NCBI RefSeq assembly: GCF_003334385.1
Contig: NZ_QOWN01000098.1
Reading direction: 5' to 3' (one strand)
DNA: 2,727 bases
Source: Escherichia coli
Lineage (GTDB): Bacteria > Pseudomonadota > Gammaproteobacteria > Enterobacterales > Enterobacteriaceae
Below are positions 1 to 108 of this stretch, one piece after another. Numbering within the stretch: the stretch's first letter is position 1; every line of letters begins with the position of its first letter. A model generated the notes under the pieces. The model worked only from the letters and a program-made list of their open reading frames with translations, was not told the DNA's origin and did not search any database. Made by a program: the position numbers and the translations under genes.

Positions 1-27
1 CGACATCATCGGACTGTAACCCGACCC

Positions 28-35
28 GGGGGGGG
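28..35. repeat. G8 homopolymer tract inside a GC-rich segment (CCGACCCGGGGGGGGATCATCCGG, 21-44); function unknown
   Basis: Eight consecutive G at 28-35, read directly. Lies ~75 bp upstream of the GTTAAC repeat array and ~280 bp upstream of terS. Confidence 0.4.
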
Positions 36-108
36 ATCATCCGGCGTAAAAAACGATCGCTTTGGACACCGCGCCCCGTCTCACGCAGAGAAAAAATTCC
101 CGTTTCAG

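Follow-up and report, generated by a model that had tools for sequence, protein, structure and literature searches.

A G-rich box held in register with the cohesive-end cut as a putative subsite of HK97-type cos regions in Escherichia coli prophages

The DNA analyzed here, a stretch of 2,727 bases referred to below as the window, carries eight consecutive G residues on its + strand at positions 28 to 35, and the question raised by this locus is what such a run is doing there. A sequence-only reading had offered two answers, taking the G-rich segment at 20 to 47 (the string that it quoted, CCGACCCGGGGGGGGATCATCCGG, is window 21 to 44) either as the place where a lambda-like cos is cleaved or as a slippage-prone tract. 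It had set the run some 75 bp upstream of a repeat array, and we indeed found the first GTTAAC at 113, leaving a gap of 78 bp from the end of the run; the AT-rich leader in which it had placed the run proved to lie elsewhere, as bases 1 to 100 are 58% GC and the AT-rich stretch is at 101 to 250 (35 to 37% GC). By itself, a G8 run is unremarkable in this GG-rich window, with at least one such run arising in 70 of 200 dinucleotide shuffles. Its significance therefore stems from conservation, described below, and not from the run as such.

Across its full length, the window matches E. coli phages of the Stx-converting kind and their lambdoid relatives at 95 to 97.5% identity (2851, YYZ-2008, 1717, BP-4795, and Stx1a/Stx2c phages among them), and we conclude that it represents the packaging module (HNH, cos, terS, terL, and prohead protease) of a lambdoid prophage of the Stx type in E. 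coli (phage 2851/Pankowvirus-like). The genes are as follows:

2 to 19, + strand: 3' end of the HNH endonuclease gene (…D I I G L; stop codon TAA at 17 to 19), from RefSeq and phage annotations under the match; PHROG 589.
309 to 872, + strand: terS, 187 aa; PHROG 641.
869 to 2530, + strand: terL, 553 aa, with PF03354 and PF20441; 23% identical to HK97 gp2; PHROG match.
2593 to 2727, + strand: start of a prohead protease/major capsid fusion gene, from annotations under the match.

Consistently, the annotation at every match of the first 320 bases reads "HNH endonuclease" followed by "terminase small subunit", and the last base of the HNH coding sequence in phage 2851 corresponds to window 19, so that the intergenic region between HNH and terS measures 289 nt. 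The HNH stop codon lies 8 nt ahead of the G8 run and the terS start 273 nt behind it, and the run is outside any open reading frame or promoter spacer. PF03354 and PF20441 are also carried by the TerL relatives; NCBIfam assigned no family to terS or terL. With an HNH gene directly upstream, and terS and an HK97-class terL (PF03354) directly downstream, the locus has the gene context of an HK97-type cos. Thus, the cos-like layout that had been proposed is borne out, in that the HNH-terS intergenic region does hold cos, upstream of the GTTAAC repeats and terS, whereas the model chosen for it, lambda, belongs to the wrong class: cos here is of the HK97 type, HNH-associated and with 3' overhangs. 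The module is widespread, bases 1 to 320 being present in 1,244 of 5,426 complete E. coli genomes (at most seven copies per genome) and the HNH-cos-terS region occurring at 2,946 places in E. coli, six of them on plasmids. One packaging module is common to many co-resident E. coli prophages. In the Stx2 phages 1717 and Stx2a_F349, terL is broken by IS629.

The position of the cut was taken from relatives whose packaged-DNA ends have been mapped or can be read from their deposited records. The Stx1 phage Lys8385Vzw has a 3' cos according to PhageTerm, with the cohesive end CGCCCCCCCT at its genome end (PMC7946995). Its record, which is ~90% identical to the window over bases 1 to 77, closes with these same 10 nt; its end (...GGACACCGCCCCCCCT) and start (CTCACGCAGAG) are collinear with window 64 to 90 and, when a longer end (...ATCATCCGGCGAAAAAAACGATCGCTCCGGACACCGCCCCCCCT) is joined to the start CTCACGCAGAGAAAAAATTCCCG, with window 36 to 102. 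For Acinetobacter phage fEg-Aba01, the 3' end 5'-CGCCCCCCAT-3' was determined by PhageTerm, a result that a gel annealing test confirmed (PMC7354433); the record ends in GGACACCGCCCCCCAT and starts with CGCACGCACAAAAAAAATTCCC, and CGCCCCCCAT directly precedes CGCACGCACAAAAAAAATTCCC. Likewise, the record of Pseudomonas phage D3 ends in GGACACCGCGCCCCCA, the final overhang sequence being CGCGCCCCCA, and that of Burkholderia phage Bcep176 has a 10-nt terminal repeat, CGCACGTTCC, at both ends, directly before CTCACGCGCAG. Among 80 IMG/VR loci fetched via TerL alignment, the first base of eight virome contigs is the homologue of base 80, and two further contigs start within 7 nt of it. By homology with these relatives, the terminase-HNH machinery would cut the top strand of the window at 79/80 and the bottom strand at 69/70, leaving the 10-nt 3' overhang CGCGCCCCGT as the equivalent of cosN, with ends of fixed sequence, and a left genome end starting at C80. 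The corresponding features are as follows:

64 to 69, + strand: GGACAC, conserved block 5' of the overhang (23-lineage conservation), with the predicted bottom-strand nick at 69/70.
70 to 79, + strand: predicted 10-nt 3' cohesive end CGCGCCCCGT, from homology to mapped relatives, with the top-strand nick between 79 and 80.

The GGACAC block is identical in D3, fEg-Aba01, and Lys8385Vzw. Over 23 lineage representatives, defined as being <70% identical over 130 nt, conservation reaches 0.87 to 0.96 at A-12, C-11, C-10, and G-9, and this ACCG straddles the bottom-strand nick. The proposal that cleavage occurs inside 20 to 47 is at odds with the mapped termini of the relatives, which give an overhang at 70 to 79 and a left end at base 80; it is off by about 40 bp.

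The cohesive end itself is polymorphic among close relatives (CGCGCCCCCT at 55 loci, CGCCCCCCGT at 10, CGCCCCCCCT at 10, CTCGCCCCCT at 5, and others), the variant in the window, CGCGCCCCGT, being found at 1 of 84 loci. Because of this variation, co-resident prophages with the same terminase may have ends that fail to anneal with one another.

With the cut thus placed, we observed that the G run stops 34 nt short of the overhang, and that a G-rich box stands at the same position in HK97, SfV, D3, fEg-Aba01, Bcep176, and metagenomic relatives. We refer to it as the G-box. In the window it comprises the following:

28 to 35, + strand: G8 homopolymer, the cos G-box, at -52 to -45 from the left end; length polymorphic, with a G-rich box at the same position in relatives.
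36 to 46, + strand: ATCATCCGGCG, the flank directly 3' of the G-box, which reads TCAAATCT or TCGAAAGTCT in other lineages (from alignments).

In the individual phages, the box, its 3' flank, the distance to the overhang, and the overhang are as follows:

Window: G8; box and 3' flank CCCGGGGGGGGATCATCC; 34 nt; overhang CGCGCCCCGT.
HK97: G9; box and 3' flank GGCAGGGGGGGGGATCAAATC; 32 nt; overhang CGCCGCCAAA.
SfV: box GGGGAGGGGCGGG; box and 3' flank GAGGGGAGGGGCGGGTCAAATCT; 31 nt; overhang TGCCCGCCCC, taken as the cos determined for SfI (PMC3636060).
D3: box GGGGTGGGGCGGG; box and 3' flank GGGGTGGGGCGGGTCAAAACC; 30 nt; overhang CGCGCCCCCA.
fEg-Aba01: G6; box and 3' flank GGCAGGGGGGATGTCAAAAC; 35 nt; overhang CGCCCCCCAT.
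Bcep176: box GGGGAGGGGG; box and 3' flank GGGGAGGGGGTGCCAAAAGTCT; 33 nt; overhang CGCACGTTCC.

More specifically, with a G-block defined as at least 7 G in 9 nt, 42 of the 47 non-redundant homologous cos regions have the 3' edge of the block between -46 and -43, counted from the left end, and in the remaining five the best block is elsewhere. The background density is 0.8 such blocks per kb per strand, corresponding to a chance of ~0.003 per sequence within a 4-nt positional window. Across the 23 lineages, G frequency is 0.96, 0.96, and 0.91 at -48, -47, and -46, respectively, comparable to the ACCG at the bottom-strand nick; conservation of the 3' flank is moderate (A at -39 to -37 in 0.6 to 0.7 of lineages), and the spacer between the G-box and the nick block is not conserved (mostly <0.5). 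Between the upstream stop codon and the box there are as few as 8 nt in the window and as many as 269 nt in HK97 (22 to 269 nt in the other phages), and the box is shared by HK97 and the window even though their TerL proteins are 23% identical and their TerS and HNH proteins have no significant similarity. The G-rich strand is the one that bears the 3' overhang, and all deposited linear genomes that we examined have the box inside their right end. In the last 123 nt of the lambda right end, used as a negative control, no G-box was present. The likeness to HK97, D3, and SfV is below BLAST length and was spotted by reading genome ends; a blastn search of window 1 to 130 against phages in distant mode returned the same phage group alone. 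Taken together, the fixed position relative to the cut, the variable distance to genes, and the divergence of the terminases indicate, at the level of sequence, that the G tract is a conserved subsite of the HK97-type cos class, its position being tied to the cut and not to any gene. The accessible HK97 papers and full-text searches describe no G-rich element upstream of the cos cut, although older HK97 and D3 genome papers may mention one, and we provisionally regard the G-box as undescribed before.

Some further candidate features of the box were considered and set aside. The sequence-only reading had drawn attention to related repeats on either side of the run, ATCATCGG, correctly located at 5 to 12, and ATCATCCGG, which it put at 38 to 46 and which actually occupies 36 to 44. 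As a functional pair, these ATCATC(C)GG direct repeats were rejected: the first copy is coding sequence, because bases 2 to 19 are the 3' end of HNH, and the pair is missing in relatives with a different upstream gene, so we treat the flanking repeat as due to chance. An intramolecular G-quadruplex was likewise rejected, the window having a single G8 without four tracts and the interrupted boxes elsewhere having 2 to 3 tracts only. Nor is the G-box in general an inverted repeat of the C-rich overhang, a relation that holds in SfV, Lys8385Vzw, fEg-Aba01, and D3 and fails in HK97, Bcep176, and the metagenomic group. In the HNH-terS spacer of Staphylococcus phage phi12 (L148, 20490 to 20550), we noted a C-box, GCCCCCTACCC, ~33 nt upstream of CGGCGGGGGC, with which it forms an inverted repeat; the spacing matches that between G-box and core, with opposite strand polarity, and as the cos position of phi12 is putative, this case was kept out of the evidence.

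The second proposal, that of a slippage-prone tract, was partly upheld. At the 84 enterobacterial loci compared, which represent 45 haplotypes, the box consists of G alone, 5 to 12 in number and most often 7 to 8 (e.g., G12 in phage 2851, G10 in phi330, G7 in Lys8385Vzw, and G8 in the window), a spread that is consistent with slippage. Some of the homopolymer-length differences may be sequencing errors; however, some variants swap a C or T at the edge of the run without changing its total length, which argues against pure sequencing error. Throughout these length changes, the 3' edge of the run remains in register with the cut, and the spread could also reflect weak sequence constraint in the enterobacterial lineage. 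The part of the proposal that was not upheld concerns a genetic switch: as the tract sits past the HNH stop codon, 273 nt before terS and without a promoter, its length does not switch a gene. The sequence-only reading had itself named two findings that would speak against it, namely termini outside 20 to 47 and an invariant tract length; the termini do fall outside this segment, and the tract length is not invariant.

In view of these data, we consider it probable that the G-box is a functional upstream accessory subsite of the HK97/D3-type cos, one that is not itself cut. Several other explanations need to be weighed. Were the G-rich segment at 20 to 47 itself the nicking site, as in a lambda-like cosN, its GC-richness and its location between the late genes and terS, upstream of the repeats, would be accounted for; yet all mapped or inferred termini of the relatives lie 35 to 45 bp further downstream, at 69/70 and 79/80, and a cut within the box conflicts with its internal position in the deposited right ends, such that we give this explanation next to no credence. 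The run could instead be a neutral, slippage-prone homopolymer devoid of function and kept by common descent, which would fit both the G5-G12 range among near-identical prophages and the finding that G8 is not rare for the composition of the window. Against this, G-richness at -52 to -45 survives where the spacer has diverged beyond recognition and the terminase proteins are at most 23% identical, and a G-block would rarely fall by chance into the same 4-nt window, as calculated above; neutrality thus appears quite improbable to us. A contingency tract that switches HNH or terS, or else an intrinsic terminator or structured RNA element, has in its favor a length-polymorphic homopolymer of at least 7 nt, and we nevertheless rate it highly improbable: the run belongs to no open reading frame or promoter spacer, other phages have the box 22 to 269 nt from the upstream gene, and our promoter and terminator scan found no + strand promoter and no terminator at the run, nor a GC-rich hairpin followed by a T run at 20 to 60, the sole terminator-like site in the scan being at 134 to 149. 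In addition, the predicted RNA fold of 1 to 110 was no more stable than that of shuffled sequences (z = +1.0).

A closer competitor shares the premise of a cos subsite and assigns it another task, i.e., binding or positioning of HNH or TerL at initiation, or the holding of the last-packaged end in the portal or neck (retention/ejection). The positional conservation is the same as that expected if the box is read at termination. Moreover, the box repeats the C-run of the overhang in inverted form in SfV (GGGGCGGG/CCCGCCCC), Lys8385Vzw (G7/C7), and fEg-Aba01 (G6/C6), hinting at one recognition module that reads both, and the HK97 termination complex has ~25 bp of DNA in TerL, ending at the portal, from which it can be inferred that DNA 35 to 50 bp upstream of the cut is in or beyond the portal channel. 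The inverted-repeat relation is, however, missing from HK97 and from the group formed by Bcep176 and the metagenomic relatives (overhang CGACCGTTCC), and we judge such a role to be rather unlikely.

Returning to the accessory subsite, we propose, as a possibility that we favor less than the existence of the subsite itself, that its specific role by analogy is in termination. After cleavage, the G-box would stay on the right, last-packaged genome end, 34 bp inside the overhang. HK97 packages from the terS side toward the next cos, with TerS located downstream of the cut at +15 to +29 (PMC11331095, PMC9410871, PMC10359639), and because of this direction the motor would reach the G-box 35 to 45 bp ahead of the cut. 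As the concatemer is drawn in from its upstream side, the conserved components of the motor (TerL, possibly HNH or the portal) would read the box. The box is retained in phages with TerS and HNH proteins that are not detectably similar, all of which have an HK97-class TerL; this persistence, together with a position fixed to the cut, makes a TerL-type reader the most likely one. Reading of the box would help to stop translocation and to position or license the termination cut, the role that cosQ has in lambda. The enterobacterial homopolymer would slip in replication, giving rise to G5-G12, and these lengths are apparently tolerated because the 3' edge remains in register. A broader and equally tentative conjecture extends this role to HK97-class, HNH-assisted cos packaging in general, in which the G-box would be the upstream signal for termination, a functional counterpart of cosQ unrelated to it in sequence and common to phages of E. 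coli, Acinetobacter, Pseudomonas, and Burkholderia; TerL or the portal might read it, perhaps via a rigid A-like geometry of the G·C tract, slowing translocation before the cut site enters the nuclease, and slippage in Stx-type phages would make packaging efficiency mutable. In vitro work on HK97 has ascribed stalling at cos to TerS bound downstream, with no upstream element invoked (PMC11331095, PMC9410871, PMC10359639). The figure legend of PMC9410871 gives 10-nt 3' overhangs for HK97, and its Discussion gives 12-nt 3' overhangs for HK97 and 10-nt 5' overhangs for lambda; the numbers are apparently swapped.

Downstream of the cut, a conserved A-tract with CCC spans +12 to +22, and the GTTAAC repeats set in at +34:

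80 to 102, + strand: left genome end CTCACGCAGAGAAAAAATTCCCG, conserved, in which an A-tract (+12 to +17) is followed by CCC (+20 to +22); candidate TerS contact, from the eight virome contig starts and conservation.
109 to 238, no strand assigned: GTTAAC repeats/palindromes (113 to 118, 121 to 126, 189 to 194, 212 to 217, and 228 to 233); candidate cosB-like TerS sites, from sequence.

HK97 TerS binds +15 to +29 beside an A/T tract (PMC11331095, PMC9410871, PMC10359639), and by analogy the A-tract and CCC at the left end are a candidate TerS contact in the window, where TerS is unrelated in sequence to HK97 gp1. In relatives with 81 to 84% TerL identity, the terS start codon is part of GTAAACATGTTAACAGCGCAG, at ~+38 from the cut and after a GGAGG; the terS start of the window is at +230, and several copies of ATGTTAAC/GTTAACAT fall in the interval; an ORF at 62 to 193 (43 aa) has an internal ATG at 119 to 121 that begins ...MLTG. 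The GTTAAC array looks like duplicated copies of an ancestral terS-start/TerS-site region. A long imperfect palindrome at 90 to 147, centered at 119/120, has the arms GAAAAAATTCCCG (90 to 102) and CGGGCATTTTTTC (135 to 147), which means that the A-tract/CCCG block of the left end has an inverted copy. Between these arms, at 109 to 130, lies a perfect 22-bp palindrome (GCCAGTTAACA and TGTTAACTGGC as its halves), and the terminator-like match at 134 to 149 is the right arm of the imperfect palindrome.

The G-run may also serve as a landing site for a mobile element. The cos G-run of PPompW prophages is the exact location of ISEc20, an element of the IS110 family (...TTTCGGGGGGG, IS, CGGGGGATCATCCGG), and the lysis genes and HNH are absent upstream. 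In an unrelated chromosomal context, ISEc20 is again found between G runs (CCCGGGGGG, IS, GGGGGTGCG). The junctions are at 1040 to 1052 and 2495 to 2510 in locus L064 and at 215 to 230 and 1670 to 1690 in locus L149, compared with 28 to 35 for the run in the window, and the IS-cos junction is present in 24 complete E. coli genomes. These observations suggest that ISEc20 targets G-runs, the cos G-box being one insertion site.

HK97 is the structural model for cos packaging, and termination has so far been explained solely by TerS downstream of the cut. As HK97 itself has the box (G9 at -51 to -43), inside the -312 to +472 substrate used in vitro, it offers a cheap mutagenesis target with which to address what tells the motor to halt and cleave. 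For Stx prophages, cos coordinates are now placed, putatively at 70 to 79 in the window. G-box length and cohesive-end sequence both vary among relatives that reside together in one genome, and this variation bears on cross-packaging, satellite mobilization, and the correct linearization of such genomes. The G tract is, in addition, identified as an insertion point for ISEc20.

Compared with known systems, the G-box resembles contingency tracts in being a run of at least 7 G whose length changes frequently among close relatives, and differs from them in lying outside coding region and promoter. Lambda cosQ, which lies upstream of cosN and is needed for the termination nick (PMC6739421), is alike in its location tens of bp upstream of the nick, on the last-packaged end, where the motor meets it before cosN (PMC6739421). 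In contrast, cosQ and the G-box have no sequence similarity, lambda is without a G-box, and its terminase belongs to another class, generates 12-nt 5' overhangs, and has no HNH partner. Relative to HK97, the window differs in that the TerL proteins are 23% identical, TerS and HNH are not detectably similar, the gap between HNH and the box is 8 nt rather than 269 nt, and the ends of the window are assigned by homology. The HNH partner of HK97 is gp74. Shared with HK97 are the gene order HNH-cos-terS-terL, a 10-nt C-rich 3' overhang (CGCCGCCAAA in HK97, CGCGCCCCGT in the window), a G run followed by ATCA 32 to 34 nt upstream of it (GGCAGGGGGGGGGATCAAATC and CCCGGGGGGGGATCATCC, respectively), and an A/T tract with CCCG ~12 to 25 nt downstream of the cut. 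Closer in terminase sequence are fEg-Aba01 and Bcep176, with TerL proteins 52 to 58% identical to that of the window (~52% for fEg-Aba01), and Lys8385Vzw (97.5%). Outside the enterobacterial group, the box is interrupted (GGGGTGGGGCGGG, GGGGAGGGGG) or shorter (G6), the overhang of Bcep176 differs (CGCACGTTCC), and the left end of D3, GGTCTTTTTCC, is unrelated. The core, GGACAC followed by CGC(G/C)CCCC(N)(T/A), is nonetheless nearly identical in D3, fEg-Aba01, and Lys8385Vzw, as is the left end, C(T/G)CACGC...AAAAAATTCCC, in fEg-Aba01, Lys8385Vzw, and Bcep176, and in all four phages the G-box stands 30 to 35 nt upstream of the overhang.
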